IMG/VR virus record: IMGVR_UViG_3300037502_002220
Span: 32,001-96,000 of that record
Length of the DNA stretch: 64,000 nt
Reading direction: 5' to 3' (one strand)
Source: a virus
Below the pieces are notes generated by a model. That model worked only from the letters and a program-made list of their open reading frames with translations. It ran no database searches and had not been told where the DNA came from. Shown piece after piece: positions 5,001 through 44,689 of this stretch. The position numbers and the translations under genes were made by a program. How positions within the stretch are numbered: position 1 is the stretch's first letter; each line of letters begins with the position of its first letter.

Positions 5001-8000
5001 CTTAATTAATAGAATCCAATCTGGACAACCTGTTCAGTTTACTAAAGAAGCTTTACGTCAAGCTGCAACAACAGAAGTTGGTTTAGCTACTGGTGAGTTC
5101 TTAACAGAAACTTTAGATTTTTTAGAAACAAAGAATGCTGAAAAAACTAAATCAGCGTTTTTAGAAAAGTTTGCTGATTATCAAGTTAGGTTAGAGCGAC
5201 AGATGATGAGTGTATCTAACGAACTTACACTAGCTGTACAACTATCAGATGAAGTACGAGATCTTATTAATTTAATTACTGAGTACATATCTGAAGTTGA
5301 AGCAAGTCCTGCCGTAAAGTCTTTATCTGAAATTCCAGACGATGTTAAAGCTGAGTTAGAAAGTAAGTTTCCTGGTGTACTTAACGCTATGGATAAAGCT
5401 TTAAAAAGCAACAATCCAGATGTTGTATTAAGATTCTTAGCTAACTTAGTAAATAAAGTTAAAGATCAGCACAGTGAAACCTATGTAGAGGTACTTAAAG
5501 ATTTTGCTAAGTTGCTACAACCGTATGTAAACTTATCTGCTGAAATAAGCTCTGACGTACTTAGTAACAGAGCGCAAGAGTTAGTAGATATGATAGATAA
5601 AAATGATACGTATGTTAAAGGACTTCAAGCATTACGTAGGTTTTCTGTCTTGATTAAATATCAAAGACAGTTAAGTAAACTTAAAAATCAAATACTTAAA
5701 GGTTACTCACCTAAAGAAGATCCGCAGATAATACCTGATGTTGAAACACAAGATGTTACAGGTGACCCTACTTTATTTAGTAGTGAAGAACAGAATAGAA
5801 AAGTACTTTCGTTATTTAATACTTCTGGGTTAAATATTGAGTACGATAATGACGGTAATGATGTACGTGCAGATATTCTCAACTTAGGTTATACATTACC
5901 TGTACCTTCACAATCTGATATTACAAGAAACTTCTTTCAATGGTTAGATAGTAGTGATACTGGTAACTTTAAGGTGATACCTTACGCACCAGAGTTTAAC
6001 GATACAGACTTTGATGATATTACAGATCCTGAAACAGCTAAGGTACTTAGAGATTATATTGCAGGTACTCCTCCTGATGCTCGTGCAGAAGCATTGTACG
6101 GTGTTGTTATAGAAGAAGTTGATGGTGCACGTATGCTTAAGATGTATAACGGTAAACCTTTGATTAATTCTATGATGCGTCCGCAAACTAAGTTTCCTAG
6201 CAATAGAAACCCTAGAATGGCTAGACGTGCGTACATAGGTTTATTTTTAAAAGATGTATTAGGTTGGACATCTATACCTTCAGATAAAGATTTAGTAAAT
6301 ACTAATAATTATAATTTAATTAAATCTAGTATTGACAAATTAGAAAAATATGGTATTTCTATACCAGATCCTAAATCATTAACATCTCGTAGTTTTTACC
6401 ATATGATAGAATCTTTTGCGTTAGTATATACGCAAATGAAATATCAGCAAGGATTTAATGAGCTGTTGTCTAAGACTAGAGAACTAAAAGGTAGTGATTT
6501 ATCTTCGCGTAAATTATTAGAAACTACTGGTATTAGTAAAGGATTTCAAGTAGTAGCTAAAACTATTAATGGTGAACCTGTACAATTTGATTCTGAGAAC
6601 ATGGAGTTAGAATATACTCCTGCAGGTAACCCTAAGAACTTTGATGTACTTAAAGCTAACTTTGATGGTGTAGCTACATTAAACGGTGTTAAGTATGATG
6701 CTTTACAACCTGGTCGTTTGTACATTAAAAAACATGATAGCAATACGTTGATACCTGTAGAAATGGGCATGTTGTCTAATAACGAAATAGATGCTATCTT
6801 GTACATGCTTAGTATGTACGCAGATAACAAACGTTCATTAAGACAGATGATACCACAATTAGATGGTAGTGTTAGAATTAAAAATACATATATTAAATTA
6901 TCTAATATGTCTATACTACCAGCTACTAAAGACAGAGTTAGTTTAATATCTATGATAATGAACTGGGGCTTTAAAGTTAAAGGAGACCCTTCACCGTTTG
7001 ATATTTATTTAAGTAAAGGTTCAGTGATATTTAACGATTCTTCAATATCATTAAATGCTCTTAAGAAAGCATACTTAGAAAACGATGCAGCTACTTTACA
7101 ACCATTAATAGCTTTTCTAAGAACAAAGCGTGTTAACGCTAATTATAACTTACTTAGTGTAGCTAATAACTTTTTTGAGTTTACGGTAGAGAGAGATAAA
7201 AAAACTAAAAAACCATTTGACATTAAAGCTGTACAAAAACAAGGATCATACGCTAAACACATATTAGATCGTGCTTCGTTTTACGGTGCACCTAAAGATG
7301 TGTTAGATGCAGCAGGATTGCCTAGTTCTGCGCAGAAATATATTATGTTTAAAGACTTTGATACTAAAGTAGATGTAAATGAGTTTAGAGCTAAGGCACC
7401 TAGCCCTAAACCTAAACCAGTATTTACACTTAAACCTAGTGGAGTTAGTCCTGTTATAAATGCTTTAAGAGAAAGTAGCTCTATAACAGATTTTAGAACT
7501 AGAGCAGCTTCTTATCTTACAGATCCTGAAAGTGTAGGATTGTTTAGTAGGATATTAAAAAAGTTAGAAAATGAAAGTGGTCCTTTGTTTGAAGCAGAGA
7601 AGCTTTTAGTACTTAATGATAAAAGTATTGTTAGTAGTAAAACAACTGCAGACGTTACACCTGAAGAAAGTTCTGTTACAGTAAAAGATATCTTAAGTAG
7701 TTTGGAACAAGAAGAAACTCAGCAAGGTGAAGAGGGTGGTACTAACATTACAATGAAAGAAGCTTTAAGTACGCTGTGGGAACAAGTAGGTGGTAAACCT
7801 GAAACTCAAGAACAACCTGAAGCTGGTGTTACTGAGCAAGAATCTCAACCTCCAGTTGAAGAAACTAAACCTGACTTTAAAACTATTGAACCTGATTTCA
7901 GTAAAGTGTCTGTATCACTTGATATAAGTAGTATAGACGACACTGATTTCTTAGCTATATTTAAAGAAATTAATTCAGACGGCTTTGGTAAATTTGCATC

Positions 8001-8568
8001 TCAAAGTGATGAGTGGATGACTAGGTATCAAAAAAATAATGTAAACTCTTTATTTATTACAGCAAACGGCTTTGTAAGTATGGAGAACATTAGTAATGAT
8101 TCTATTGCACCAGGTAAAACATTTAATTTTCAAGGTACTGTAAGTAATACTTTAAACGAACGTCTTAGACGTAAATATCTATCTGTCACAAAAGATCCTA
8201 CATACAAATTAGCTATAGAAGAAGCTCGTAAACAAACTGAAGCTTTAATCAATAAACCTAGTACTGAACCTACACCTACTAATATTGTCGACGTATCTAA
8301 AATAGACATAAGAACTTATAAACCTGTAGTTGGAGATGTAATTGAAATGGAGGGTAAAGATTACACTGTTGTAAGTGTAAGTAAAACCGTATCTTTAAAA
8401 TCTGGTACAGAAACAAAAGTACTTAGAGTTAGTGCATTTAGACCTGGGTTAGATTCAAATACAATGAAGTTAAAAAGTAGGGTGGTTAAATCTGTAGCTG
8501 ATTACAATAAGATATTAAGTGATGCTATACAGCGTGGTATTATTGACGAAATAAACTGTAATAGATAA
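2008..8568 (+). CDS. Giant virion cargo/ejection protein (2186 aa)
   Basis: Gly/Ala-rich hydrophobic N-terminal segments, long coiled coils, directly upstream of the virion RNAP as in crAss-like phages. Confidence 0.7.
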   Translation: MAKILTPQDLSTVDRGIPQTSIRPFSFREAANLATGGIGPPSPMKIRDASEYEGVDVSFALQGGERALQEGRALRQTNLELVGKGLGNIAENVIFETLKFPGTIASGIGIVTGNEGMVNNLWLQGFDALQKPLTELTEVYVPPSVQEKGLWGQLSSPYFWAGEGADAIGTMLSMMIPGRWLATFGLGAKAAKGLAKVGKLGEIAVDGSRILETTGDANKIGKFLVKTLGSTGRGLDFGKLARNIDSGVAVATNTLLESSAEALDTYESLLAQGKTPEEAGEAATKVMMLNMGLLTVSNTLLEKYVFNGFNRLPSVGKQLTTALKGGTPVFKPFQQAGIKFAAGVLAEGVIEEGLQTSFQQEEGDPIRSLERYFENFQSLFSADPDIEFGKAVILGSLLGGAVGGISGFSDVREQRATLEGRPERVLAKGRLGTLQGMLGYKAKQAEKGLIDIFRPSFESLKTGKDILKNSVNEKGEFNVEALKDDSIMFALSNMVDDILLQNNGDVQASKTQVAASLSELGMSNAAIKSLVNGLIPSDINNLSGEQVLKLITLKKDNTYFSRFAANPAGFEMLDAHIDDMVDALEERYEMNTGAKLSDEKKKSISTDLKSKAKRYKNMYEAATTFNNNVRYGIEVAQEDAEDFNEFIRMTQGQTLGSMTYIEELRTIADEIEKETNAEQQKINTAKSTLENAKKDGDPDLIKSREQDLAKAISDANAAVPNFNDKRKDLARIRENVAAREKNIIEFGTEPKVREKWEAFLEVKREKKKATQQYFDGVEVDTKIMPAIYKIIYDQLVNKGYTPELITDIPFVKIAVFHATYEGDLYTFTQTKDGFNVRNHSEQSDETVANWKALIEKFPKLTILTVDQYNLEKQRIDKEIADRKAELEQQAAIEALTQLSIELRQEFNKIEASLQSDYNTLQGVKEELAKAKKRLKSVQAKLRRDSKKGIPVGELQDTVTELKTLVKQLEAQQENTIRTIANLENVRIRLQSELNGIASLINRIQSGQPVQFTKEALRQAATTEVGLATGEFLTETLDFLETKNAEKTKSAFLEKFADYQVRLERQMMSVSNELTLAVQLSDEVRDLINLITEYISEVEASPAVKSLSEIPDDVKAELESKFPGVLNAMDKALKSNNPDVVLRFLANLVNKVKDQHSETYVEVLKDFAKLLQPYVNLSAEISSDVLSNRAQELVDMIDKNDTYVKGLQALRRFSVLIKYQRQLSKLKNQILKGYSPKEDPQIIPDVETQDVTGDPTLFSSEEQNRKVLSLFNTSGLNIEYDNDGNDVRADILNLGYTLPVPSQSDITRNFFQWLDSSDTGNFKVIPYAPEFNDTDFDDITDPETAKVLRDYIAGTPPDARAEALYGVVIEEVDGARMLKMYNGKPLINSMMRPQTKFPSNRNPRMARRAYIGLFLKDVLGWTSIPSDKDLVNTNNYNLIKSSIDKLEKYGISIPDPKSLTSRSFYHMIESFALVYTQMKYQQGFNELLSKTRELKGSDLSSRKLLETTGISKGFQVVAKTINGEPVQFDSENMELEYTPAGNPKNFDVLKANFDGVATLNGVKYDALQPGRLYIKKHDSNTLIPVEMGMLSNNEIDAILYMLSMYADNKRSLRQMIPQLDGSVRIKNTYIKLSNMSILPATKDRVSLISMIMNWGFKVKGDPSPFDIYLSKGSVIFNDSSISLNALKKAYLENDAATLQPLIAFLRTKRVNANYNLLSVANNFFEFTVERDKKTKKPFDIKAVQKQGSYAKHILDRASFYGAPKDVLDAAGLPSSAQKYIMFKDFDTKVDVNEFRAKAPSPKPKPVFTLKPSGVSPVINALRESSSITDFRTRAASYLTDPESVGLFSRILKKLENESGPLFEAEKLLVLNDKSIVSSKTTADVTPEESSVTVKDILSSLEQEETQQGEEGGTNITMKEALSTLWEQVGGKPETQEQPEAGVTEQESQPPVEETKPDFKTIEPDFSKVSVSLDISSIDDTDFLAIFKEINSDGFGKFASQSDEWMTRYQKNNVNSLFITANGFVSMENISNDSIAPGKTFNFQGTVSNTLNERLRRKYLSVTKDPTYKLAIEEARKQTEALINKPSTEPTPTNIVDVSKIDIRTYKPVVGDVIEMEGKDYTVVSVSKTVSLKSGTETKVLRVSAFRPGLDSNTMKLKSRVVKSVADYNKILSDAIQRGIIDEINCNR

Positions 8569-11500
8569 TGGCTTGTCAATACGTATTTCAAGGTAAGACG
8601 TATAATAAAAGATCTATCCTTAATGCAATTAAGGATGGTGATGTTGTACTTGGTGATATCCAAACAGCACGTGAGAACATACGTAAGATTCTGAACATGA
8701 ACGATTCTGAAATAGAACTTGTTCGTGGTCTTATTGATAACGATGCTGTTGGTGCATTTACACAAGATGGTAGGATACTATTATCTGATCGCTTTGTACA
8801 AGGTGAAGAATATCACGAAGCATTCCATCGTGTGTTTAGAACTGTATTTAGTGATGCACAGCGTAAAGCATTATTTAAAGAGTATCGTAATCGTGAAGGG
8901 TTCCAAGAATCTTTAGATCAGAAACGTAAACTCTATCCTAATCAAAGTACAGAAGAACTTATCGAAGAAGTACTTGCGGATGAGTTTATGATGTATCAAT
9001 TAGCTAATGGTAACTATGTAGTACCTAAGCCTATACAGAATGCATTTCAGCGTATTCTAAATTTTATTAGAAAGTTACTTGGACTTAAAGATATTGCTGG
9101 TGTATATGAAGCTATACGTGCTGGTAATTACAAAAGCGTAAAGCCTAAGTTTTATAAAAGTACTAGGTTAGCTAAATCTAAAGTAAAAGTTGGTAATCTT
9201 GAGTTAGATGTATTTCAGAAAAATGAAATACTAGATGCAGTTATTGCTAAGTTTAGTACTTCGTTTATAGAAGAAGTTAGCGATAAAGATTCTTTTGAAG
9301 ACGTAGATATTAACAGGCATTTAATCGATGGTATAGAAAATGTAATAGATCTTTTGCGAGAAGATTTTACAGATCCAGATAAAAGAGATTTAGCAACTGC
9401 TATTGAAAATGATGCACTTAACTATAGAATTTTAGAAGATGACTTTACTGTAGAAACAACTATAAATGCTAACTCACCTATTGTAGAAGAACTAACATTA
9501 CGCTTAGATCAACTTAGGATTAAAACTAAAGAAGAAACGCTAGAGCCTGAAGAACTTAATGATGAAGAAGCAGTTACTAATGACCATCCGTTTCTAAAAG
9601 CTAGCTGGGAAACAAATCCAGAAGATAACATTACACTAGCTATGAAGATCTTTGCTACTTCAATAGAGAGTTCACAGCTTAGTGATTACTACGCACTACC
9701 TAAACCAGAGCCTTCTGGTAAAGTAGTTATGACGTTGTTTAAAGTACTTAAGAATGCTACACATAACTGGGATGTAGTAAAGAACTTACTTGAAAATAAC
9801 GTAGATACCAATCCTTGGATACAAACTATTCTAGATCGTCTGCAAAATAACTTGAAGTTACGCACACAGTTTGTGCGATCGTTTGTAAAAGCACACTACG
9901 ATATGTACAGTGGTATCTGGGTTAAAGAAGAACTACAGGTACAACCACTAGAAGATGAAACTAGGTTTATATCTTTAATACGTGAAGTTAAAGATTACAT
10001 TAACATACTTGAAGATAGAGAAGGTATAGTTAGTCCTAGTTTATCAGATCGTAATCTCTCTACTAAAGAGAAGTTTCGTATCCTAACAGGTATAGAACTA
10101 TCTGATGAAATATTAAAAGGTACAATAAATACTAGCAAAGGTCTTACAACAGGTGAAGAGATTGCCGATAATATAATTGCTGTTACTCGTACAAACATAA
10201 ATGAAGGAGTTCAGTACAAGGATCTATTTAATAACAAAGTATATAGACCTACTGATAAATCAGAAAAACCTGAAGATTATTCTGTACTAGGTAACTTACG
10301 TCGTCTTCTTAATGAATACAATAAATATAGACCTAGTGAACAAGGTGTAGTACTTAATCATAATCGTGATAGAGTGTGGCCTTGGACTATGCACACATAT
10401 CAAAAGCAAGTAGAGTCTGCACTTAACCTAGTTGCTAACTTAACACCTAGTGAGCTAGCAACTATTGACTCTGGTATAACTGAAGGTGGATTACTCCCTG
10501 AAGAAGTTAATATGCAAAAGCGTATTGCTAAACTTAGAGAGTTGCTACCTTGGTTTGTAGATTACAAGTTTAACTTTTACGTAGATGAAAATGGATTAAC
10601 TAGAACTAATTCATTAATACTTAAGCGTATACTAGAACAAGGAGATACTTACTCCATATCTATATTTAGTGGTATGCGTTTAGATGATGGTACTGATGCT
10701 AAGGATCTACTTACACCAGATATGATACCTATGTACATTAGGTCTATGAGTGGACTAGAACCTAAGTACATTAGCGTTAAGCATGGTGATCGTGGTGCTA
10801 TATTTGCTGGTGGTTTTGAAAGTAAAGTAAAATATACAGATAATATAACTGCACAAGACTACTTAGCTTCACTGCTACTAGATGAGATTAACTTAATCCG
10901 AGAAAGCAGTAAGTACAGTGTATTTAAAAAGATGGGTGACGGTAACCTTAAGCTATTTGAGTTTTTAAACATTGACGCAAATGAACTACAAAAGTTAGTT
11001 AACGATACTACATTGACTTCAAACAAGTTACACAAGAAGTATAAAGAAAGTTTTGATAAGCATGTAGAAGGGATTGAAGCAGACTTTAAAAACTTATTGA
11101 AAGAAGTCTACGCTAACTTTGACGGTAAAAGGTTTGATGATGTATTTACTAAACCTGGAGAAACAAAAGTACCTTTTTATACTACAGCAGAGGTGTTTAG
11201 TATGTACAATAACGATGAAGAAATTCTTATCAAAGAAGTAGTTAAGAATTATTTGATACACTTCTACGAAGATATGCGTGTATTTGTAGGATACGCAGGT
11301 GAGTATCCTAACATGGTAAACTTGTTTAAGCGTATTCAGAGCTTATCTTCTTCTGGTACTCCACTAGTTAATGACGGTGAACTTAATAGCTACATTGATA
11401 ATAAAAATCAACAGGATGCGTACGCAATTATTACAGGTAATGAAGTTGAAATGCGCACGTATGGTGATCGTAACTTAAAGCAAAAAGGTAAGATTAAAGA

Positions 11501-14500
11501 GAAAGTACTTATCGGACCTAGGGTTAGTTATACAGAAGCTGAAAAAGAAAATCTAGCTGCTATCCATAAAGCTAATTTAATCAAAGAAGGATTTCCAGAA
11601 GATATTGCAGAAAAGCGTGCTGAAGAATGGGTATCTGTATTTGATAAATACGAAGAAGCAGATGGTGTAACATTTACAAATATGTTCTTCTATCGTGAAT
11701 ATAAGATTAGATTAGGTGAGTGGAATCAGAACATGGAAAATGCTTTTCAGATTGAGCTAGCTATCCTTAATCAGAATACATTAAACCCAGAAGTATTTCT
11801 TGCAGAAGGTGATCGTGTATTTGCTAATAGACCTACAGATTTACCAGTAATACGCATTAAAGCATTTGATTTAAGTAATGAAAATGCAGCTAGGGTATTT
11901 AACAAGTTAGAACCTTTTACTATGCTTAAGCCAGTGTACACTGGTCCTGTAGAACATCAAGGTGCTACAGTAAATGGTATACGTAAAACAGCATTTCATG
12001 TTATATTACCTAGTATGGTATTTGGTACTGATAAGATGCAGAGTATACATGATTACATGCTACGTAATAACGTAGATATGATATCGTTAGATAGTGCTAC
12101 TAAGAAAGCAGTACCTAGTAATGTAGAAGATATTAATGTAGAAATATATTCTACTAACGAAGACACGTTTACAATCTTAGATACTATGTATCTTAAAGAA
12201 CAAGTAAAGATGTCTAACGATGAAAAGGGTAGGATTAAAAACGCTACACAGTCTACTACAATAGTATTTACTAATATTTTTGAAGAAGATCCTAGAGGGT
12301 TTTCTAAACCAAAAGATTACACAGGTGAAAGACCTTGGAATGAACTTACTGATGAAGAGAAGTTAGCTCAGAGTAAAGTATTTACTAAACACACAAAGTA
12401 CAAAGAAGCACTTGATGCTGTTGTAACAATGCACATGGATCGTGTTAAAGAAGATCTAGGTGTAGTTGGTGATAACATTACAGACATTGAACTTGTTACA
12501 GAAATACTTAGAACTAACATTAACGTACCTTCAGTTAGAGATGCTTTAAATTATGTAACAGAAGCTAAGAGTTTAGACTTATTACCTAGCTTTAATAGGA
12601 TTGAACCAGCGTTACTTAGTATTGTAAGTAATGAAGCTGTTAGGATTAAACGTCCTGGTGAGATGCTAGCTCAATACTCTGTCTATGGTATGGATGAAGT
12701 TACAATATCTGGTGTTAAATCTAAGCGTCTTCAGAACTATAGAATTGAAGGTAATGTAATTAGACCAGCAGAGATTATTGTACCGCTACCTAAGAGTATG
12801 GCTGCTCAGTTAATGAAGAGGTTTAAAACTAATAACTTAGTAGAAGCTATACAAAGATATAACAGTAGAGATAAAAAAATTATTGTAAAAGGTTTGCGTA
12901 TTCCTAATCAGCAGTTATCGTTTAACGGTATCTACGAAATTAAAGAGTTTGCACTACCTACAATGCAAAACTATATTGTATTACCTAGTGAGATTGTACC
13001 AGTAAGTTCTTCTGACTTTGACATTGATAAGCAACAAGTGTACTGGCCTATACTTGATGATAGAGGTAACATGGTTCAAACAGATGAAGCTGGTGTATAT
13101 AATAGGTTACTTCAAGCTGAAATAGATCTGTTGTTAGATCCATCTAATTTTCACACGTTGATGGCACCAGTAAATGAAGCTTGGTTTAGTAAAGATCTAT
13201 TTAAAGACATATTAATAAAACGCGGTGAGTATACTGCAGAACAATTAAATAGTGACGAGAAGTTAGAAAATGCTGTAATCAAGTTTACGTTTAAGGAAAT
13301 TGGTAACATCGCTAGTCAAATACGTACTGCTATTAACATGACGCAATCTAAGCTTAACGTAGGTCTTATGGCTACTAACGCTAAGATGTATCCTGTAGGT
13401 CAAGCAGATTCTTGGAAAGCTAGTAGCGTAGTAGCTAATGAAGATGATATCCTTATAGCTAACTTGATACCTTTTGAAGGTGATAAGCAACACTTCTTTG
13501 CACTGTATGATTCTGATTACAGACATATTACAGAAATTATTAGTACGTTAATGACATCGCAGTTAGATGGCGTTAAGAACCCATATGCTGTAGCATTAAA
13601 CATTGTTAAGAATAGTATTGGACCAATGATGTTTATGGTTAGACGTGGTATGCCTATTAACTTAATAGCTAGGATTATTGCGTCACCTGTAGTAACGAGG
13701 TATAACACAGTTACTAACTTGTATAAATCTAACTCAGCTAAAGCTAGACGTATATACCCTAAGACTAAGGGGAAGAGTAACGTACTTAATTTTATGTACG
13801 ATTTTAGCGGTAAAAACGCAATAGAAAATTATTTAAACGAGTTTAAAAATAGAGATAGGATAGTAAGCTCTGCTACTGTTCTTAAAGCATTATCAGATAA
13901 AACATTAAAGACTGAAGATAGTCTTCAAGTACTTGCTGGTTATATGTACGTTGAAGAACTAGCTAAAGCTATGTTGGAGATATCTACTGCGATGACACCT
14001 GATACTAAGCCATTAGGTAACATGTCTATGGTAGATGTAATGTCTGAAAAATATAAAGACTTTGACAACAACTTTCGTCGTAGAGCAGCTATGATAGATA
14101 AAGATTTTAAAACTGGATTTTTAAAACCTTTCTACAATGCTCAAAAGTTGTATCAACTGTTTGGTAACTTATACTTTACTAGAAAAGATAAATTAGCTAA
14201 TTACTTAACGGTAGAGTTAGGTACACAAGTTAGTGCTGGTGCTATATCTGTAGATGATAGAGCTAGAGTTAAGAACACGTTTGTTAATGACTTTAAAGCG
14301 TATATGTTCTTTAAAAAACTTAACGAAAGTAAAGAATATAAAGGTAAGTACACATTTGATGCTATCATGACTAATAGTAATCTTGTAGATGAAATTGCAA
14401 GCATACGACAAGATGAAACGCACCCTATGAGTACTAACTACCTAATACAGAATTTAATTCCTATTACAGGTATAGCTACAGATCCAGATGGTACTACACC

Positions 14501-16169
14501 TTTGTATTTACTTAAGCTAAGAAGTAGGGGTGATAACGCGTTACATCTTTACGATCTGTATCAAAACTTTGAAGATCTTGTAGATTCTGTTGTAGGTACA
14601 GAGTATGAAGCAAGTATGCACGAACTTGTACGTAAACTTATTGCATATAACGTATACACTACTGGATTTGGATTCTCACCATTTACATTAGATGATGCAG
14701 TATCACCTAGGTTAGTTAATAAACTTTACAAAGAAATAGATTTCTATAACACTAAAATTACAGAAGAAGATGTTACACAGTTTGCTAACTTGTTTGTAGC
14801 TATGAACCCTAATGTGTTTAGGTTCACGATTAAACCTAAGAAAAATGAAACAAACTTTTTTAGAAATGTGAAGTATAAGTGGGACGGTACTTTTACAGCT
14901 AATGAAACAGACGTAACTATCTTAGGTAACTCGTACGCTAAACGTTATGATAGTAAAGTACCTAAGTACTTAACTATTCCTGTTCCACGTGGAACTCAAG
15001 CTCAAGTACAACCTACGCCTGTAACTGAACAACAGATTCCTGATGAACTTAAATGTTCTACACCTGGGTCAAAAGCAGAAGAAGGTATGTCTTTTGGATT
15101 TACACCAGGTAGTAACTGGGAGATAATCAAAGATTTTAAAGGACCTTCGCATGAATACGGTGGTATAGATATTATGGTTGAAGGTGGTACTATACGTATG
15201 TCTGATAAAGAAGGTGATGTTAAAGCACCAGATGGGGTAGTTATATCTAAAATTATGTCTAAGCTTAATCCTAAAAACTGGGGTGTTACTGATTATACAG
15301 ATAAAGGTAGTTTTGATGACGCATTTTTATCTGCGCGGAATGCTGAAGAAAAAGAATTTATGTATAAAAATAAAAGGTACACTACTGCGCAAAAAGGAGA
15401 AGATAGACCAGAGAGTTCTTTTAACTTAAGTAAGCCGCAAAGAGAAAGAATATACAATTCTGTGAGACCTGTAGGTTATCCTGCTGATGAAATGATACCT
15501 GCTGCTAAAAGATACATAACGGGAAGTAAGTTTTCAGATGCAGAAAGCGCTGAAGTAAGAACGGTTGAAGATGAAGATGCATGGGCATTTTTTATGGGAT
15601 TACCTCAGCAAAAAAATTCAGTAACTGAGTCAAAGTATAGACCTTCTAGCGCTAAAGATAAAAACACAAGATATTACACACTGAGAAATGCGTATCCAAA
15701 TTTTGATGAAACTGTTATTAATAACGCAGAAGCTGCTTTTACAGTTAACAAAAAATTAAACGCGGGTACTGTAAGAGGTGTTGAATCTTCATTTTTACCT
15801 TTAGAAAATGTAACTTTTTCTAAAGGTAAAGATGAGAGAGGAGATTATTATTCTATGTACGATGTGTATGATTTTAGCATTCCTTTTGAAGGAAAAATAG
15901 GAAAACCTTATGAAGTATATGACAGGGTTTATTATAAAGATTACGGAGATGGTGTTCGTAAACCTATGTATTATACCGACAATGAGCTTTTATCTTTAGA
16001 CGTAAATAAAAAGAATTTTGATACACTAGCGTTGCAAAAAGAATTATCTAACAGAGGTGTTACCTTTAAAAAGTCTGTAAAAAAAGATGGTTCTTTTGAT
16101 GGTATATTTGGAGAAGAAACTAAAGCTGCGTTGTTAGATTATCAGAATAAAAACAAACCTAAGAAATGA
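8568..16169 (+). CDS. Virion-packaged single-chain RNA polymerase (crAss-like, phi14:2 gp66 type) with N-terminal zincin-like domain and C-terminal appended module
   Basis: Catalytic SDFDIDK (DFDID at 13014-13028) preceded by RIPNQ; HEAFH plus EEVLADEF zincin motif; 2533 aa. Confidence 0.9.
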   Translation: MACQYVFQGKTYNKRSILNAIKDGDVVLGDIQTARENIRKILNMNDSEIELVRGLIDNDAVGAFTQDGRILLSDRFVQGEEYHEAFHRVFRTVFSDAQRKALFKEYRNREGFQESLDQKRKLYPNQSTEELIEEVLADEFMMYQLANGNYVVPKPIQNAFQRILNFIRKLLGLKDIAGVYEAIRAGNYKSVKPKFYKSTRLAKSKVKVGNLELDVFQKNEILDAVIAKFSTSFIEEVSDKDSFEDVDINRHLIDGIENVIDLLREDFTDPDKRDLATAIENDALNYRILEDDFTVETTINANSPIVEELTLRLDQLRIKTKEETLEPEELNDEEAVTNDHPFLKASWETNPEDNITLAMKIFATSIESSQLSDYYALPKPEPSGKVVMTLFKVLKNATHNWDVVKNLLENNVDTNPWIQTILDRLQNNLKLRTQFVRSFVKAHYDMYSGIWVKEELQVQPLEDETRFISLIREVKDYINILEDREGIVSPSLSDRNLSTKEKFRILTGIELSDEILKGTINTSKGLTTGEEIADNIIAVTRTNINEGVQYKDLFNNKVYRPTDKSEKPEDYSVLGNLRRLLNEYNKYRPSEQGVVLNHNRDRVWPWTMHTYQKQVESALNLVANLTPSELATIDSGITEGGLLPEEVNMQKRIAKLRELLPWFVDYKFNFYVDENGLTRTNSLILKRILEQGDTYSISIFSGMRLDDGTDAKDLLTPDMIPMYIRSMSGLEPKYISVKHGDRGAIFAGGFESKVKYTDNITAQDYLASLLLDEINLIRESSKYSVFKKMGDGNLKLFEFLNIDANELQKLVNDTTLTSNKLHKKYKESFDKHVEGIEADFKNLLKEVYANFDGKRFDDVFTKPGETKVPFYTTAEVFSMYNNDEEILIKEVVKNYLIHFYEDMRVFVGYAGEYPNMVNLFKRIQSLSSSGTPLVNDGELNSYIDNKNQQDAYAIITGNEVEMRTYGDRNLKQKGKIKEKVLIGPRVSYTEAEKENLAAIHKANLIKEGFPEDIAEKRAEEWVSVFDKYEEADGVTFTNMFFYREYKIRLGEWNQNMENAFQIELAILNQNTLNPEVFLAEGDRVFANRPTDLPVIRIKAFDLSNENAARVFNKLEPFTMLKPVYTGPVEHQGATVNGIRKTAFHVILPSMVFGTDKMQSIHDYMLRNNVDMISLDSATKKAVPSNVEDINVEIYSTNEDTFTILDTMYLKEQVKMSNDEKGRIKNATQSTTIVFTNIFEEDPRGFSKPKDYTGERPWNELTDEEKLAQSKVFTKHTKYKEALDAVVTMHMDRVKEDLGVVGDNITDIELVTEILRTNINVPSVRDALNYVTEAKSLDLLPSFNRIEPALLSIVSNEAVRIKRPGEMLAQYSVYGMDEVTISGVKSKRLQNYRIEGNVIRPAEIIVPLPKSMAAQLMKRFKTNNLVEAIQRYNSRDKKIIVKGLRIPNQQLSFNGIYEIKEFALPTMQNYIVLPSEIVPVSSSDFDIDKQQVYWPILDDRGNMVQTDEAGVYNRLLQAEIDLLLDPSNFHTLMAPVNEAWFSKDLFKDILIKRGEYTAEQLNSDEKLENAVIKFTFKEIGNIASQIRTAINMTQSKLNVGLMATNAKMYPVGQADSWKASSVVANEDDILIANLIPFEGDKQHFFALYDSDYRHITEIISTLMTSQLDGVKNPYAVALNIVKNSIGPMMFMVRRGMPINLIARIIASPVVTRYNTVTNLYKSNSAKARRIYPKTKGKSNVLNFMYDFSGKNAIENYLNEFKNRDRIVSSATVLKALSDKTLKTEDSLQVLAGYMYVEELAKAMLEISTAMTPDTKPLGNMSMVDVMSEKYKDFDNNFRRRAAMIDKDFKTGFLKPFYNAQKLYQLFGNLYFTRKDKLANYLTVELGTQVSAGAISVDDRARVKNTFVNDFKAYMFFKKLNESKEYKGKYTFDAIMTNSNLVDEIASIRQDETHPMSTNYLIQNLIPITGIATDPDGTTPLYLLKLRSRGDNALHLYDLYQNFEDLVDSVVGTEYEASMHELVRKLIAYNVYTTGFGFSPFTLDDAVSPRLVNKLYKEIDFYNTKITEEDVTQFANLFVAMNPNVFRFTIKPKKNETNFFRNVKYKWDGTFTANETDVTILGNSYAKRYDSKVPKYLTIPVPRGTQAQVQPTPVTEQQIPDELKCSTPGSKAEEGMSFGFTPGSNWEIIKDFKGPSHEYGGIDIMVEGGTIRMSDKEGDVKAPDGVVISKIMSKLNPKNWGVTDYTDKGSFDDAFLSARNAEEKEFMYKNKRYTTAQKGEDRPESSFNLSKPQRERIYNSVRPVGYPADEMIPAAKRYITGSKFSDAESAEVRTVEDEDAWAFFMGLPQQKNSVTESKYRPSSAKDKNTRYYTLRNAYPNFDETVINNAEAAFTVNKKLNAGTVRGVESSFLPLENVTFSKGKDERGDYYSMYDVYDFSIPFEGKIGKPYEVYDRVYYKDYGDGVRKPMYYTDNELLSLDVNKKNFDTLALQKELSNRGVTFKKSVKKDGSFDGIFGEETKAALLDYQNKNKPKK

Positions 16170-16351
16170 AACCTAAGCACATTGAAGTAGAAGGTGGTGA
16201 AATAGCTATACGTAATAAGAACGGTGATATAGCTATTATACCTAAGTATAAGAAACGTTGGTTGCAAAGTCAAATGCGAAAAGGGTGCCACTCTTGTATA
16301 GATGAATTTGTAAAAACACTACCTTCGTATAAAGATCTTAAAGATAAATAA
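16166..16351 (+). CDS. Small protein with IEVEGGE motif and CxxC
   Basis: 61 aa, ATGA-coupled to RNAP; the VEGG motif recurs in the RNAP tail. Confidence 0.6.
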   Translation: MKPKHIEVEGGEIAIRNKNGDIAIIPKYKKRWLQSQMRKGCHSCIDEFVKTLPSYKDLKDK

Positions 16352-16352
16352 C

Positions 16353-18746
16353 ATGGCTTGTCAAATTAAAAGAAAAGATAACGGTACTATAGATACTGTA
16401 CTAGCACCTAATGGTAAACCTAGTGTGTTATACAACTCACTTGTAAATGCTATTGCTAGCTCAGAAGTAACTAGGAACGTTATACAATCTGATCCTTATG
16501 TAAGTTCTGTAATGGATAGTGTATATGTAATGGATAACACTGCTGAAGAACTTGCACTAGCTGCTTGGAGTAAGGCGTACACTGTAGACTTTATAGATAG
16601 CTTTGGTAACTGGAAAGAAGATAAGCTACCTAATACAGATAGTAACGGTGAGCCTACTATAAACATGTTATTTCCAGAGATTGCAGATACTGGTGTTAAA
16701 CCTGGTGTATCTGAGCTGTTTGAATCTAATCCTGAGTTAGCTAATGTAGGCACACAAGAACAATACTCTGCATACCTAGACCAAGTGTTTCCAGATAGCA
16801 AGGTTAAAGACATCATGTATCATGGTAGTGATAAAACGTTTAATAAATTTTCAAAAGAATTTGCAAGAGCTGATAGACCTTATTTTTATTTTTCATTTGC
16901 TGAAGAAGCTAACATGTATAAAGAAGCAAGAGGAGGTTCTTATATTTACCCTGTTATTTTAAATGTTAAAAATTATGCTACAGGTTATACTCCTGATGAA
17001 TTAGAAATAGATACTGTTAATAATTTAATAAAACAAGGATATGATGCTGTTGCTGGTAGAGGTTGGACAACAAGAGAAGAAGTAGCAGTATTTGAACCAG
17101 AACAAATACACATATTAGGTACCCCACAAGACATAGAAGGGTTTAAAAGATTTGTATCTAAACCTACACAATCTGTTAGACTTTTTTCAAGTGAAGAGTA
17201 TTCTAAAAACACTCGTGCGTATGTAGAAGAAGTTGAAAGAGTTACCCGACTTATTGAAAATAAATTAAAGATTAAAGAAAAATCTTTTGTAGGTAAAACA
17301 ACTGACAAGTTTGTTGAAAAACAAGATTATTTAAACGATGTTTTAAAACAGCTATTAAATAACATAGGTTTACCTAATACTATAACTAGCTTAGAAGAAT
17401 TAAAAGCTGGGTTACAGGATGGTACAATCTTAAAATATATTCAGAAGGAATATGATTTTTACAAGCAAAAAACTATTAAGACAAAAGGAAATCTAAACAC
17501 ATTGAACTCTAACGTCAGAGTATTAAATAGATTTTTAAAATCTTTAGATATAAACGCATATTCTATAGAACAACAAGAGTTAATAAGAAAATCTTTTCCT
17601 GCACTGTTTGAAGATTTAGGTAGGTATAAATCTAAAGCGCAAGCACTGTCTTATTACAAGCAAGTTGTAAATACACCTAAGTTTTTAAATAAAGCTTTAA
17701 ACTTACAGTACGTTAAGACACAGTACTTTACTGCACAATCTAAGCTAAACAAATTTGAAAATTTATTGAACTATAACACATTGTCTCCAGAAGATTTTCA
17801 ATATAGAATATACAAAGTTGTTGAAAATGAGCTGGATAGGAGAAGTGAGTTTTTTGATTCTAATAAAATGCAAGCTGTTGTGTTAGCTGAAAAAGAAAAA
17901 ATAGCTAAGCAGACTTACGAAAAAAGTGTAAAAGGGTTATTAGAAAGATTTAGTAAAAATGAGAACACTGTTTCAGGTAAGATAGCTAAGGTATTTTTAG
18001 AACATCCTAATACATTAAACGCAATTAAAGCAGAAAACATAAACAAAACTATTTTTGGATTTGCAGGAGGAGAGTGGAAAGGAGACGGTACTTTAAATGT
18101 TAACTTTAAAGACGAACAATCTCTAAAGCACATATTGTTACATGAGTTAACACATCATTTTACAGTACCTTATGTTTTTACTTATTTAAAAAATCATTCT
18201 AACATAGATAAGTATGTAGGTTTTTCTGAAAGATTTCCTTCAGAAGAAGACTTAAAAGAAAGTATAGAATATTCTGTAAAAGAATTAACTCGACAGGAAG
18301 TAGATTCTATTTCTAAATTAGAAGATATTTACATTCATGTTTTAAATTTACATAAGCAAGGTAAGATACAATTTACTAACAGAGAGTTTTCTGCAAATCC
18401 TGAATATGGATTAGAAAATCTTTATGAGTTTATATCAGAGGTAATATCTAACCCGTATTTTGCTGCAGAGATAGCTAAGCAGCCTGGTTTGTTTAATAAA
18501 AAATCTAATCTTCTTAAAGATATTATTTATGCTATCTTTAAAATGTTTGGGATAAATAATAACAATTCTTTATTAGAAGATGTATATAACTTGTTTGAAG
18601 ATTCTTTTTTATATAAAGATGAAAAGTATAACTTTAAATCTTTAGTAGAATCGAAGTCAAGTTTTAAGTACAACTTACCTCAAGTTCAACAATCTATAAG
18701 TGATGAGTGGACTAACGTAAAAAATAACTGTCCTAAACTAATTTAA
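16353..18746 (+). CDS. Polyvalent protein: ADP-ribosyltransferase (ART-PolyVal-like) plus zincin metallopeptidase
   Basis: YHGS...FYFS...YPVILN...GYDAV...EVAVFEPEQI (H-Y-E ART signature); HELTH plus EFISE; N-terminal APNGKPS and DSNGEP motifs typical of polyvalent proteins. Confidence 0.75.
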   Translation: MACQIKRKDNGTIDTVLAPNGKPSVLYNSLVNAIASSEVTRNVIQSDPYVSSVMDSVYVMDNTAEELALAAWSKAYTVDFIDSFGNWKEDKLPNTDSNGEPTINMLFPEIADTGVKPGVSELFESNPELANVGTQEQYSAYLDQVFPDSKVKDIMYHGSDKTFNKFSKEFARADRPYFYFSFAEEANMYKEARGGSYIYPVILNVKNYATGYTPDELEIDTVNNLIKQGYDAVAGRGWTTREEVAVFEPEQIHILGTPQDIEGFKRFVSKPTQSVRLFSSEEYSKNTRAYVEEVERVTRLIENKLKIKEKSFVGKTTDKFVEKQDYLNDVLKQLLNNIGLPNTITSLEELKAGLQDGTILKYIQKEYDFYKQKTIKTKGNLNTLNSNVRVLNRFLKSLDINAYSIEQQELIRKSFPALFEDLGRYKSKAQALSYYKQVVNTPKFLNKALNLQYVKTQYFTAQSKLNKFENLLNYNTLSPEDFQYRIYKVVENELDRRSEFFDSNKMQAVVLAEKEKIAKQTYEKSVKGLLERFSKNENTVSGKIAKVFLEHPNTLNAIKAENINKTIFGFAGGEWKGDGTLNVNFKDEQSLKHILLHELTHHFTVPYVFTYLKNHSNIDKYVGFSERFPSEEDLKESIEYSVKELTRQEVDSISKLEDIYIHVLNLHKQGKIQFTNREFSANPEYGLENLYEFISEVISNPYFAAEIAKQPGLFNKKSNLLKDIIYAIFKMFGINNNNSLLEDVYNLFEDSFLYKDEKYNFKSLVESKSSFKYNLPQVQQSISDEWTNVKNNCPKLI

Positions 18747-18758
18747 AATTATACAACT

Positions 18759-19250
18759 ATGATGTTAGATAAAGAACTATTAGAACTGTTTAACTACAGG
18801 ATCAACCAGGAAGAAGCTAGTGCTAGGTTATATCTTAAAATGTCTATACACTTAAATGACGTAGGATATTTTAACGCCGCTAAGTTGTGGAAGAAGTTCT
18901 CAGAAGAAGAACGTGAGCACGCAGATATCGCACGTAAGTATTTACTTGCACTAGACATTGAACCAGAGACTAGAGATATTATTGTACCTAACAAAGAGTT
19001 TAACGGTCTAGATGGTGTTATTAACGCTACACTAGAACATGAGTATGAAGTTACACAGCAGTGTGAAGACTTAGCTAAAGCTTGTCTTAAACAACTGTGT
19101 TTTAAATCATTCTCTATTGCACAAGAATATATTAAAATACAAATACACGAGCTTGAGGAATACCACGACATGAAGAATAGATTAGATCTATTTGGTACAG
19201 ATCCTATTAGCTTACGTTTGTATGATAACGAACTCAAAGATATGTTATGA
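18759..19250 (+). CDS. Ferritin (FtnA-like)
   Basis: 163 aa; INQEEASARLYL...EEEREHA...LEHE...QIHE pattern of ferroxidase-centre residues. Confidence 0.85.
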   Translation: MMLDKELLELFNYRINQEEASARLYLKMSIHLNDVGYFNAAKLWKKFSEEEREHADIARKYLLALDIEPETRDIIVPNKEFNGLDGVINATLEHEYEVTQQCEDLAKACLKQLCFKSFSIAQEYIKIQIHELEEYHDMKNRLDLFGTDPISLRLYDNELKDML

Positions 19251-19642
19251 GCTGCGCACCCTTTAGTGATCCACTGATGAACGCATTATCATATCTATAT
19301 ACAAATAAAGCTATAGATAAGGATATGCGCATCAGAACTAAACGCATAGACTTCTACTTGAACATCCTTGATAAACAAGCTGGTGTCAAGCTATTTGATA
19401 TCATGGAAGATACACTAGTACCTATCCAAGAGAACTTTAATACTATGCGTGGTCTAGAGCAAGCTGATGAAGTAGCACCAATACCGTCTTATACAGATCG
19501 TATTGCAGAAGGTAGATCAGAAGCTAAGGAAGTGTGGAATAACTCTGATAAAAAACTACCTTCTGGTTTTGACGAAGATCAGCGCATGTACTTAGAAGAA
19601 TTATTTAATGAAGGTATATTAGAACTTAACTGTACGTTATGA
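19247..19642 (+). CDS. Small cargo-module protein with terminal cysteines
   Basis: 131 aa, ATGA-coupled on both sides; starts MSC, ends NCTL. Confidence 0.65.
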   Translation: MSCAPFSDPLMNALSYLYTNKAIDKDMRIRTKRIDFYLNILDKQAGVKLFDIMEDTLVPIQENFNTMRGLEQADEVAPIPSYTDRIAEGRSEAKEVWNNSDKKLPSGFDEDQRMYLEELFNEGILELNCTL

Positions 19643-22600
19643 GCTGTAAAACACCAACGTTTGAAGAACTAATGCAAGCTGTTAAGAACAGGATGTTCTT
19701 AAAGATAGCTAAAGAAAAAACTCAAGACGGTATTGTAGAAGCACTTAAGTTTACCAGTGATGTTCTTCAATTACGCCAGCAGAATGTAAATCCTAAGAAC
19801 GTAGGTGATGATACTTCTCGCTATACGTTAATAGATCCTAGTGCTGGAGATACTTCTGTGTTCTTATCTAATCGTGTAACAGATAGAGTAGCTAGGTACT
19901 ATCGTAAGATATTTGAGAAACCTAGTAACCCTAATACTGCACAAATGGAGTACGGTACTGCTGTACATAAAGTTATGCAGAATCTGTTAGAAGGTAACTA
20001 TAACAACACGCTAGATATTAATGCTGTGTATGCAGCTCAGGTAAACACACCGTACAGCTTAACGTTGGAACAAGTTCAACAGTTAAATAGCTATGCTAAA
20101 AAGCTTTTAAAAGATATCGACGCACAACAACAAGCTATTGACCCTAAAGGTACTTTTAGAATAGCTGTTGAAAACGTAGTCGTAGATCCTGTTAAAGATC
20201 TAGCTGGTACAGTAGACTTAGTAGTAGTATTCTCAGATGGTACAGTAGGAGTCTATGACTTTAAAACAATGTCACCAAAGTCTAATGTCATAGAAAGAAA
20301 TATGTTTGGTCAAATTACCAACGTAACTGGTAGAGACTTTGTAGCTGCTACTACTAGAACAGGTTGGAGTATGCAGATGAACTCCTATCGTGATACATTA
20401 CTAGAATACTACGGTGCTAAAGACGTTAGGTTTACTAGGATTATTCCTATGTTTATGAACTATACGTTAGATGATAATAAGCAAATTACTGGTCTTAGAG
20501 AAATTATAACTGAAGCTAACTTTGAACAGCTATCACCTAGATCTGTAGGTGTAGAAAAGTTTACTAACGCAGCTATTAACGAGTTTCTAAAGACTAGGTA
20601 CGAGTATATAGAGCAGTTAAATAAACAAATACAATCTGCTTCTAGATTAGAGCGTCCTAAGTTGTATCAACAGCTAAACCAAGTGTATGACTCTATAGAT
20701 ATGTTTGTTAACAACATGGATATTACCATGCTGATTAACGATGCACTTGCTGTATCTAAAGGTACTTACGAAACACTAGCTGAACTTAAGGAAGCATATA
20801 CATTTGTTAAAGCTATAGTAGATCTACAGCGTAACTTATCTGATACTACAGAAGCATTTGATATTACCTTTGATGCTGACGTAATAGATACACTAGCTAA
20901 GAATGCAGCAGTACTACATGAAAAGTATATCAAGTTGATTCTTGATGGTGTTGAAGGTAGATACGGTAAGCTTAATGTAGAAGGTGGTGAGATACTACTT
21001 AGTGAAGATGATCTACTTACACAGATCTTTAGCACTACCACAGAATCTCAGAACCCTATTGTAAGATATGCACAAGATTTATTTCAAGGTAGTTACAATT
21101 ATCAACGTAGAGAATTTAGAGATTTTGATGAAGCATTAGCTAGTGTAGAGAAACCATTAATAGAATGGGCTAAGTCTAGAGGTGAAACGTTAGCAGATGT
21201 ATATAAGTATTTACTTGATCTTGAAAACGGTAAGTTCTATGGTAGAGTAGATCTAGCATTTATTGAACGTGCTAATCAAGAACGTGATGCTGAGAACGTA
21301 GAGTTCTTTACTAAGAATTACGAGATAAAAGATAAGAATGCTAAAGGGGAAACGTATAAAGAATGGTACAATCGCAACATAAAAGAACTAACGCAAGTAC
21401 TTGAAGCTAGGTTTAAAAACTTAGATGAAAATCAACGTGTAACTGCTGTACAGCGTGCGCTTGATAATTGGCAGAGTAACAACGATTTAAAGATAGAAAA
21501 CGGTATACCTAGATACCCTAAAGCTTGGTTGAATAAACACAACAGTTGGCTTAAGATTAAACCAGGAGTACTTGCTGCTAATCAATCTGAGCAGTATACG
21601 TTCATGAAAGCTAATAAACCACTGCTAGATTATTACGAGTTCTTGCGCGATAGTGTAGCTAAGTGGAGAGGAGAAACTAGCTACAAACTTATAGATAGTT
21701 ATTTGTTCTATCCTATGGTTAGAGCTAGTGCTATTGAAAAACTAGGTAGGACTAATGCTTATGATACATTACTTACAGACATTAAAGAAGTACTAGAGAT
21801 CAAACAAGATGATCAACTCTTTGGTGTATCTGAAATTAATGACGATGGTACTATGGTAGAAGCTAAGCAGATACCGCTGTACTTTACACAACCGTTTAGG
21901 AACGCTGCTGGTGGTATAGATACATCGCAGATGAGTACAGATATCAGTGCTAGCTTTAGGTTAATGGCTAAGTCTGTGTACAATTACAAGTACATGAATC
22001 AGATTGAAGCTGATATACTAGCACTGCAAGATCTTCTTAAGATGGTCAACTACGAAGAAGGTGGTTGGGGTAAGAAGGTAGTTGACTTTATGAACAGTGT
22101 AGCTAAGAAAGATAAAACAGAATCTGGTTCTATGACCGATACTGTATTTAAAGCACTTAGAGACTATCACCTATATGGTATTAGATTACAGCCAGGGTTT
22201 AATCCTAAGTTTGTAAAAGCTGTAGATAGTGCGATGCAGTGGTTTACACTTAGGTCATTAGGTCTAGGTATCATACCAGCTACTACTTCTTATGTTGCTG
22301 GTCAAGTAAGTGCTAGGTTAGAAGCTGTTAAAGGTCAAATATGGGATACTGAAAAGTGGAACTTAGCTACCAAGCTAATGGCTAAAGAATCTAAGAAGTA
22401 TCACGGTATAGGTTTTTTCTTTGGTGTACACAACGAAGATATGCTACAAGATATCTTACGCCAACGTGTAGGTGGTGTATCTTCAGTACTAGGTAATACG
22501 CTGTACAATAACAATCTTAATAAGTACGTAGATCAGCGTTTGTTAATGGCACCGTGGTCTTATGGTCAAGAACGTTTAGATAATCACATTGCTGTAGCAA

Positions 22601-43338: not shown

Positions 43339-43440
43339 TTATTTGTGTGCAACTAATACCAATAACCCACCAGGTTGCTGATAAAAATCACAGTGTACAT
43401 CTTTAGGGGCAATTAGCCAGTGTAAGTAGTATGCTTGCAT
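43339..43440 (-). CDS. Array micro-ORF 50 (33 aa)
   Basis: MQAYYLHWLIAPKDVHCDFYQQPGGLLVLVAHK. Confidence 0.55.
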   Translation of the reverse strand: MQAYYLHWLIAPKDVHCDFYQQPGGLLVLVAHK

Positions 43441-43531
43441 ACTTTAGTATTAAAAAGTAAGAAGTATTACTTAAGTTATTTTCTACTGGAATACGAATAT
43501 ACATGTGGTAATAGAACTTTATTGTGTTCAT
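43403..43531 (-). CDS. Array micro-ORF 49 (42 aa)
   Basis: MNTIKFYYHMYIRIPVENNLSNTSYFLILKYASILLTLANCP. Confidence 0.65.
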   Translation of the reverse strand: MNTIKFYYHMYIRIPVENNLSNTSYFLILKYASILLTLANCP

Positions 43532-43641
43532 ACTTTAAAGTTTAATGTGTAGAAAATAGAAGTCTTTGCTAACAAGAATACAGTTCGTCGTTTCATAGAC
43601 CACCAGTATTTTTTATTCACGTCAATGCTGTATATATTCAT
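43528..43641 (-). CDS. Array micro-ORF 48 (37 aa)
   Basis: MNIYSIDVNKKYWWSMKRRTVFLLAKTSIFYTLNFKV. Confidence 0.6.
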   Translation of the reverse strand: MNIYSIDVNKKYWWSMKRRTVFLLAKTSIFYTLNFKV

Positions 43642-43746
43642 TTACTGTATATATAGTTTTTGAACTAAATAACAATAGTTAAGTTCGTATACTAAACTGC
43701 AGTGAAAAGTAGGATGTACCCACTCCATGTTTTTAAATATCAACAT
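43642..43746 (-). CDS. Array micro-ORF 47 (34 aa)
   Basis: MLIFKNMEWVHPTFHCSLVYELNYCYLVQKLYIQ. Confidence 0.6.
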   Translation of the reverse strand: MLIFKNMEWVHPTFHCSLVYELNYCYLVQKLYIQ

Positions 43747-43850
43747 ATTAACTTATTTACTAATATGAATATTTTTGAAGCAGCGTGTATTCTAATTATA
43801 GTAGTGCGATAATTGTACGCAAACATTGTTGAAATACCTCTTACTAACAT
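43740..43850 (-). CDS. Array micro-ORF 46 (36 aa)
   Basis: MLVRGISTMFAYNYRTTIIRIHAASKIFILVNKLIC. Confidence 0.6.
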   Translation of the reverse strand: MLVRGISTMFAYNYRTTIIRIHAASKIFILVNKLIC

Positions 43851-43951
43851 AACATGTATTTTAACAAGGCTTTTACATCAACTCTATTTTCATTAGCATT
43901 GCTGAAGTAAAAGTCTTGTGCTCTTGTTAATCTTAGATTACTTACCTCCAT
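43844..43951 (-). CDS. Array micro-ORF 45 (35 aa)
   Basis: MEVSNLRLTRAQDFYFSNANENRVDVKALLKYMLC. Confidence 0.65.
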   Translation of the reverse strand: MEVSNLRLTRAQDFYFSNANENRVDVKALLKYMLC

Positions 43952-44686: not shown

Positions 44687-44689
44687 AGT

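Follow-up and report, generated by a model that had tools for sequence, protein, structure and literature searches.

Paired terminal cysteines at the breaks between cargo proteins of a crAss-like phage suggest a disulfide-linked injected assembly

The cargo block of a viral genome, analysed here in a 64,000-nucleotide stretch (bases 32001–96000 of the single 105,444-bp contig of IMG/VR record IMGVR_UViG_3300037502_002220; hereafter the window), encodes five proteins that are almost free of cysteine (Cys) and whose few cysteines sit on the two sides of each break between one protein and the next. No phages of the human gut are more abundant than the Crassvirales, the order to which the relatives of these proteins belong, and the layout bears on how such a phage packs and injects a near-megadalton of protein, among it the RNA polymerase with which infection begins. 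Comparison with relatives, in which the cysteines accompany separate proteins and are absent where the proteins are fused, strongly supports a pairing across each break. A disulfide between two ejection proteins has been seen by cryo-electron microscopy in the pre-ejectosome of cyanopodophage A4 (Anabaena phage A-4L), where it joins gp27 Cys1715 and gp26 Cys5 next to a C-terminal helix that docks into the partner protein (PNAS 2025, PMC12002296). We consider it fairly probable that the block is an injected cargo module whose facing termini are joined by inter-chain disulfides into one assembly. A first-pass annotation, made from the letters of the window alone, had proposed that C-terminus-to-Cys3 disulfides or metal bridges link the cargo proteins in gene order.

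Cysteine layout of the chain proteins

The chain proteins and the parts of the virion RNA polymerase (RNAP), with lengths in amino acids (aa) and the basis of each assignment in brackets, are as follows.

2008..8568, + strand: chain start, 2186-aa protein, homologue of phi14:2 gp67 (Cys count, BLASTP)
8568..16169, + strand: predicted 2533-aa virion RNAP, whole open reading frame (ORF) (DFDID motif, BLASTP, tblastn)
8568..15056, + strand: RNAP body, residues 1–2163 (relatives end at or just past Cys2163)
15057..16169, + strand: 370-aa tail, in frame after the RNAP junction Cys (near-threshold Pfam match, shared motif)
16353..18746, + strand: chain link 3, 797-aa effector-like protein (Pfam PF18760, BLASTP)
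19247..19642, + strand: chain link 4, 131-aa helical protein (Cys count, conservation)
19639..23637, + strand: chain end, 1332-aa protein with a PD-(D/E)XK nuclease domain, homologue of crAss001 gp49 (Pfam, BLASTP)

A script count found eight cysteines among the 6979 residues of these five proteins (0.11%). Seven lie at residue 3 or within the last five residues, and the eighth is Cys2163 of the RNAP. The start protein has a sole Cys at residue 2184 (codon 8557–8559), in a chain that ends ...EINCNR, and its N terminus has none. The RNAP carries Cys3 (codon 8574–8576) and the junction Cys2163 (codon 15054–15056, ...ELKC), the 797-aa protein Cys3 (codon 16359–16361) and Cys793 (codon 18729–18731, ending ...NNCPKLI), and the 131-aa protein Cys3 (codon 19253–19255) and Cys129 (codon 19631–19633, ending ...LNCTL). 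The sole Cys of the end protein is residue 3 (codon 19645–19647), and its C terminus is free of Cys. The four breaks carry four C-side and four N-side cysteines, and the outer ends of the first and last proteins carry none. The first-pass annotation had read all of these positions correctly by eye, including the missing N-terminal Cys of the first protein and the missing C-terminal Cys of the last. Its statement that the block holds no other Cys is accurate for the five chain proteins and fails for two interleaved ORFs outside the chain: a 61-aa ORF has two (GCHSC), and a 163-aa ferritin-like protein has Cys102, Cys109 and Cys114, all of them internal and none terminal.

Among the 41 ORFs on the minus strand of the window, 111 of 9139 residues are Cys (1.21%), a rate at which the chain proteins would be expected to hold about 84 Cys instead of the 8 observed. 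Were the eight placed at random, with 50 terminal positions among 6979 residues, the probability of finding at least seven within five residues of a terminus would be about 1e-14. The layout is far beyond chance.

Conservation of the layout in relatives

The same five proteins with the same eight Cys positions are encoded by two related loci, L004 (RNAP 95% identical) and L005 (44%). In phi14:2, which has three chain members, the one Cys of gp67 is its last residue, gp66 has Cys3 and Cys2179, and gp65 has Cys3 only; in crAss001, gp47 has only Cys2339, gp50 has Cys5, Cys1334 and Cys2404, and gp49 has only Cys5. The window start protein matches phi14:2 gp67 by BLASTP (E 5e-31), and the end protein matches crAss001 gp49 (E 2.6e-11) and contains the Pfam PD-(D/E)XK nuclease domain. 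In crAss001, gp47 lies on the + strand and gp50 and gp49 on the − strand, so that gp47 is not adjacent to gp50, and its Cys is still kept; the pattern is therefore independent of gene adjacency or of a nucleotide signal. A nucleotide signal at the gene junctions as the source of the Cys codons is ruled out by this non-adjacent gene, by the varying positions of the codons and by the use of both TGT and TGC.

Database homologues of all three families (start, RNAP and end) show the same Cys behaviour. The start-protein homologues P0024–P0028 each have a single C-terminal Cys, to which P0028 adds one internal Cys, and Cys3 of the end protein is invariant in alignment A1. A survey of IMG/VR with the end-protein alignment found 74 loci, 65 of them non-redundant. 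Fifty of the 53 complete end proteins carry the Cys close to the start, at residue 3 in 34, residue 4 in 15 and residue 5 in one; of the other three, one lies at a contig edge, one is a broken gene and one is a split gene with a first piece that begins M-T-C. Beyond these positions, the 53 proteins have just 7 Cys in 75,723 residues. In 42 of 50 loci the next ORF upstream has a Cys among its final 10 residues, and in most of the other eight a small non-chain ORF intervenes and the next large protein upstream bears the Cys. On these comparisons, the terminal-Cys rule extends across Crassvirales, and the window is one instance of it.

The consensus of 54 C-side ends is G-x-[IL]-x-[LI]-x-C-K-hydrophobic, and that of 69 N-side ends is M, a small residue, C and then often K, T or P. 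No conserved His, Cys or Asp stands beside the terminal Cys in either set of ends. Inspection by eye across loci gave no clear pairing code between the C- and N-terminal motifs, and the C-P-N class of N termini follows many different C termini.

In the IMG/VR loci L034, L016 and L059, the RNAP or end protein comes in two or three ORFs, and the points of these internal splits carry no Cys; the genes seem to be interrupted, by introns, recoded stops or errors, and the splits do not look like true chain breaks. In L008 (cr4_1, NC_055893; 3163–32952), the annotated late genes have many in-frame stops under table 11, 38 of them in a 4491-aa fused cargo protein, in keeping with the stop-codon recoding that some crAss-like phages are known to use. 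The terminal-Cys rule still holds in L008.

Fused and separate forms as a natural control

RNAP residues 1–400, run with phmmer against 1.84 billion representatives, retrieved 150 proteins at no more than 50% identity. Where the domain starts at residue 1 of the hit, 55 of 55 proteins have a Cys in the first eight residues; where it is internal, being fused to upstream sequence, none of 68 has one 60 residues or less from the matching position (Fisher p = 2.6e-36). The fused forms mostly have one Cys, at the extreme C terminus, and proteins of 4744, 4788 and 5860 aa, probably fusions of all three cargo proteins, have none. Internal Cys make up 0.017% of 356,019 residues in this set and 0.009–0.017% in the relatives overall.

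These figures bear on the simplest alternative, namely that proteins ejected by phages are generally depleted of Cys and that the terminal ones are accidents or products of miscalled gene ends. Such depletion is indeed known for N4 gp50 and DEV gp71 (PMC11445570). We nonetheless give this explanation practically no weight: the terminal positions recur in more than 100 proteins at no more than 50% identity and vanish on fusion, and the N4-like proteins have no such terminal Cys.

Fusion of the start protein to the RNAP (cr118_1, cr4_1 and P0018) loses exactly one pair and keeps the pair formed by the RNAP C terminus and the end-protein N terminus. The numbers of N-side and C-side Cys stay equal throughout: 4 and 4 in the window, 2 and 2 in phi14:2 and crAss001, and 1 and 1 in cr118_1 and cr4_1. 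A zincin-like HExxH region lies at the RNAP N terminus in the window (8568–9008) and at the C-terminal end of gp47 in crAss001 (L009), and RNAP residues 46–147 align to gp47 residues 2116–2207, upstream of the crAss001 break. The position of the cut between start protein and RNAP thus differs by about 200 residues between the lineages. Since the Cys pair follows the break as it changes place among the domains, the pair marks the polypeptide break and not a domain.

A pairing of the cysteines across each break is strongly supported by this sequence evidence, because both sides carry one, the counts match, the outer ends have none and fusion makes both dispensable. Pairing in series along the gene order is most likely, since the start–RNAP fusion removes one pair yet leaves the other, as a series chain predicts. 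The terminal Cys might instead bond to the same Cys of a second copy, giving head-to-head or tail-to-tail dimers, or to a portal or capsid protein, and a virion contains each cargo protein in several copies (PMC10172136). Such bonds would leave both the two-sided Cys at the breaks and the Cys-free outer ends unexplained, and the A4 bond joins two different proteins; we consider them very unlikely.

The RNA polymerase, its junction cysteine and its tail

The 2533-aa protein is, by motif and homology, a crAss-type virion RNAP. It has the two-barrel catalytic motif DFDxD, as DFDID, at residue 1483, and BLASTP matches to phi14:2 gp66 (E 5.8e-8) and crAss001 gp50 (E 2.7e-8) both span this region. 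A tblastn search matched 31 phage records, nearly all of Crassvirales and including phi14:2 g066; a sequence search of the PDB gave no match. A zincin-like motif, HEAFH, occurs at residue 83.

The RNAPs of relatives end at or near the junction Cys, that of L004 in ...NQCK (two residues past the Cys) and that of L005 in ...KTQC (on the Cys). Cys2163 is the ancestral C-terminal Cys, behind which a tail has been appended in the window. Wherever a tail is appended, its first ~65 aa, directly behind the junction Cys, form a conserved motif with invariant F..T, W and K..KGP.H..GG.D; the window shares it with three other loci.

15057-15260, + strand, window: ~65-aa motif after the junction Cys
3894-4076, L010: the same motif
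3063-3635, L066: the same motif
6022-6204, L018: the same motif

The rest of the tail, beyond these first ~65 aa, appears to be a cell-wall module: the end of the window tail has a near-threshold match to Pfam PG_binding_1 (22.8 bits against a cut-off of 23), a similar match occurs in L010, and the L066 tail has a YkuD domain (E 8.6e-7). An AlphaFold model of the 370-aa tail had a predicted local distance difference test (pLDDT) score of 32 and gave no usable fold. The 61-aa ORF that overlaps the RNAP stop codon matches the N terminus of a 646-aa protein in L066 and a 740-aa protein in L018, and may be what is left of a longer gene that moves along with the tail module.

The effector-like and putative adaptor proteins

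The 797-aa and 131-aa proteins are inserted between the RNAP and the end protein, each adding a single Cys on the N side and another on the C side. An ART-PolyVal ADP-ribosyltransferase domain (PF18760) lies at residues 154–208 of the 797-aa protein (32.6 bits against a cut-off of 31.2, E 1.7e-7), which also has a zincin-like HELTH motif at residue 597. Its residues 583–749 match phi14:2 gp65 residues 231–351 by BLASTP (E 2.6e-7), and the gp65 region similar to this HExxH region is called zincin-like in the phi14:2 bioRxiv preprint. No Pfam peptidase family was matched by the HExxH regions of the RNAP (residue 83) or the 797-aa protein (residue 597). Relatives of the 797-aa protein (506, 909 and 1110 aa) swap the middle and keep both terminal Cys.

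In the 131-aa protein, both Cys are invariant in homologues at 48–52% identity. Its model is helical (pLDDT 77.5), and a Foldseek search of this model against the PDB found no similar fold; neither it nor the protein atlas gave a lead to a function. Small links of other lineages include proteins of 296–315 aa that start M-I-C-P-N and end T-C-T-I. A hidden Markov model, built from the C-terminal 140 residues of 35 proteins that lie immediately ahead of the end protein in other phages, was compared with seven window proteins and matches solely residues 94–130 of the 131-aa protein, weakly (E 0.0025).

Proposed mechanism and alternatives

In the mechanism that we propose, evolution would have cut one giant 'polyvalent' protein into separate polypeptides, at sites that differ between lineages. 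The five pieces here would be a start protein like gp67 and gp47, the virion RNAP, an ADP-ribosyltransferase/zincin-like effector, the 131-aa adaptor and a nuclease end protein like gp49. Purged of cysteine, like other proteins ejected through the cell envelope, they would keep at each cut one Cys near the upstream C terminus and one at downstream residue 3–5. Facing termini would dock in the particle, and their two thiols would form an inter-chain disulfide, so that the pieces would be rejoined, most likely in gene order, as one covalent assembly of about 0.8 MDa. The link would fix a 1:1 stoichiometry at packaging and hold the pieces together during ejection, and reduction in the host cytoplasm would free them.

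The choice of a disulfide as the link chemistry we infer from the A4 precedent, which comes from an unrelated phage. The same chain logic would hold if the facing Cys shared a metal ion (Zn, Fe or Cu) in place of a disulfide. The hosts are anaerobic, two thiolates with water or carboxylates can hold a metal, and a ferritin-like gene lies inside the block. However, each terminus offers a single Cys with no conserved His, Cys or Asp beside it, the same layout is a true disulfide in A4, and crAss001 virions hold disulfides. We regard metal bridges as unlikely, although they are the least improbable of the alternatives.

Several observations weigh against a linear, disulfide-linked chain. Hosts and gut are largely anoxic, and no bond between cargo proteins has yet been observed directly in any crAss-like phage. 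The terminal Cys could instead be free thiols within a non-covalent docking or packaging motif, or redox or acylation sites, and the C-terminal consensus could dock bond-free. Free thiols seem to us quite improbable: Cys is otherwise purged to 0.01–0.02%, one Cys on each side of every break, at slightly variable positions, is difficult to account for unless the two thiols react with each other, and the A4 precedent stands against them. Nor can the order of partners among the four N-side and four C-side Cys be read from the sequence, the only direct hint being the weak match of the pre-end model. Complex prediction for RNAP residues 1–400 with the last 149 residues of the start protein scored 0.65, 0.04 and 0.06 and was indecisive either way.

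A further point against the linear, disulfide-linked chain comes from the single-chain model of the 131-aa protein, which marks residues 3 and 129 for a bridge, with confidence below 50 at residues 129–131; the two ends of this protein might touch each other. The middle proteins would then close on themselves, Cys3 to their own C-terminal Cys, and only the start and end proteins would pair. We credit self-closure even less than like-with-like dimers: the start–RNAP fusion drops the start-protein C-terminal and RNAP N-terminal Cys and keeps the RNAP C-terminal and end-protein N-terminal Cys, which are not partners under self-closure, and the A4 pair is inter-chain. The main point against a strictly linear thread is the RNAP tail: 370 residues follow the junction Cys in the window, and the corresponding tails in L010 and L066 are 573 and 631 aa. 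With the junction Cys 370 residues from the C terminus, the linked product here would have a branch at this point and would be linear only if the tail were removed.

On this balance, the interpretation offered in the first-pass annotation is the best available and is partly supported. The pattern of M-x-C starts and terminal Cys for which it had suggested a survey in Crassvirales is kept in phi14:2, in crAss001, in the IMG/VR loci and in the 150 database representatives. The proposed C-terminus-to-Cys3 chain agrees in part with the data, in that a pair is present at every break, is absent on fusion, is kept without gene adjacency and shows equal N- and C-side counts. Its claim of linkage in gene order is consistent with these counts, with the behaviour of the fusions and with the one weak motif match; a strictly linear thread fails unless the RNAP tail is removed.

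More tentatively, the terminal Cys may constitute a general plug-in system, in which an M-x-C start and an ...x-C-x end splice a protein post-translationally into the injected cargo thread. If so, effectors such as the 797-aa and 131-aa proteins could be gained, lost and reordered without individual packaging signals, and the peptide bond and the disulfide would be interchangeable in building one megadalton injected assembly.

Neighbouring features of the window

The + strand order is a muzzle-like 1322-aa gene, three proteins in which the count of Cys is zero (431, 406 and 928 aa) and the cargo block. The 928-aa protein, the last of the three between the muzzle-like gene and the chain, matches crAss001 gp45/gp46 in position and is probably cargo of that kind, outside the chain. 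The features beside and within the chain are as follows.

2..2002, + strand: C-terminal 666 aa of the 928-aa Cys-free protein (5′-open ORF of the window)
16166..16351, + strand: 61-aa ORF with an internal CxxC, outside the chain (Cys count)
18759..19250, + strand: 163-aa ferritin-like protein, outside the chain (Pfam Ferritin, E 1.5e-19)

In a PHROGs search of the block, matches were confined to the ferritin-like ORF and the nuclease domain. The ferritin-like protein is kept at the same place in L004, L005, L010, L016, L018, L019 and L058, down to 39% identity. Downstream of the block, an AT-rich stretch of about 6 kb (GC 0.30; window 43400–49500) lacks tRNA genes and has ORFs of at most 73 aa; tiny early genes may be clustered there, or the DNA may be non-coding.

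Comparison with known systems

The homologous proteins gp67–gp66–gp65 of Cellulophaga phage phi14:2 and gp47–gp50–gp49 of Bacteroides phage crAss001, in each case the virion RNAP and its two companion cargo proteins, have been found in virions by mass spectrometry (record annotation; PMC10172136). We infer that the window cargo proteins are likewise virion-borne and ejected, because of this homology and of their position after the tail and muzzle genes. The proteins of these two phages have the same terminal Cys layout as those of the window; they form chains of three members, whereas the window has five, and the window extras are the ADP-ribosyltransferase/zincin-like module, the 131-aa adaptor and the putative cell-wall-binding tail after the RNAP junction Cys. 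In the crAss001 atlas, disulfides are reported only in the tail and portal vertex, and the cargo proteins in the capsid could not be resolved (PMC10172136). The term cysteine is absent from the bioRxiv preprint on the phi14:2 RNAP, which mentions fusions of the three proteins in some phages and assumes that these are cleaved. A full-text literature search found no paper that describes a terminal-Cys rule in Crassvirales; most subscription papers lay outside that search, so novelty is unproven.

N4 gp50 and DEV gp71, gp72 and gp73 resemble the window proteins in that a giant virion RNAP and its companion ejection proteins are purged of Cys, which the authors attribute to passage through the periplasm, with its disulfide-forming enzymes (PMC11445570). 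The N4-like proteins have essentially no Cys even at their ends, whereas the window proteins have terminal Cys; periplasm passage accounts for the absence of Cys and not for the terminal pairs. Modules of the kinds found in the window, ART-PolyVal and sequences with HExxH motifs, also occur in the polyvalent proteins of phages and conjugative elements and in crAss-like giant fusions of the three cargo proteins. The published idea is of fusions that are then cleaved, whereas the window modules are separate products that are apparently rejoined after translation. Clostridial neurotoxins have a single inter-chain disulfide whose reduction abolishes toxicity, so that their function depends on it (PMC6899712). 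The resemblance to such AB toxins is an analogy of mechanism only: there is no homology, their two chains are cut from one precursor, and they act on other cells by other routes.

The nearest structural parallel is A4. In the A-4L genome, Cys1715 and Cys5 are the only Cys of the 1717-aa gp27 and the 1114-aa gp26; these are consecutive ejection proteins, the upstream one with its sole Cys at the C-terminal end and the downstream one with its sole Cys at residue 3–5, a layout that the window shares. A4, a T7-like phage of 42 kb that lacks a virion RNAP, joins two proteins by a single link, as against four predicted links among five proteins in the window. The A4 report (PMC12002296) gives its disulfide as a structural detail and not as a rule, whereas the crAss rule spans a phage order. 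Homology between the two was ruled out, as BLASTP of A-4L gp24–gp29 against the window cargo gave no match better than E 0.05, and the likeness is one of mechanism and not of family.

A rule of one Cys pair per chain break is concrete and cheaply testable. If true, it would explain equal cargo stoichiometry, the co-injection of extra effectors and the interchangeable fused and split gene architectures in the order, and the structural detail seen in A4 would become a recurring principle of podophage ejection systems.

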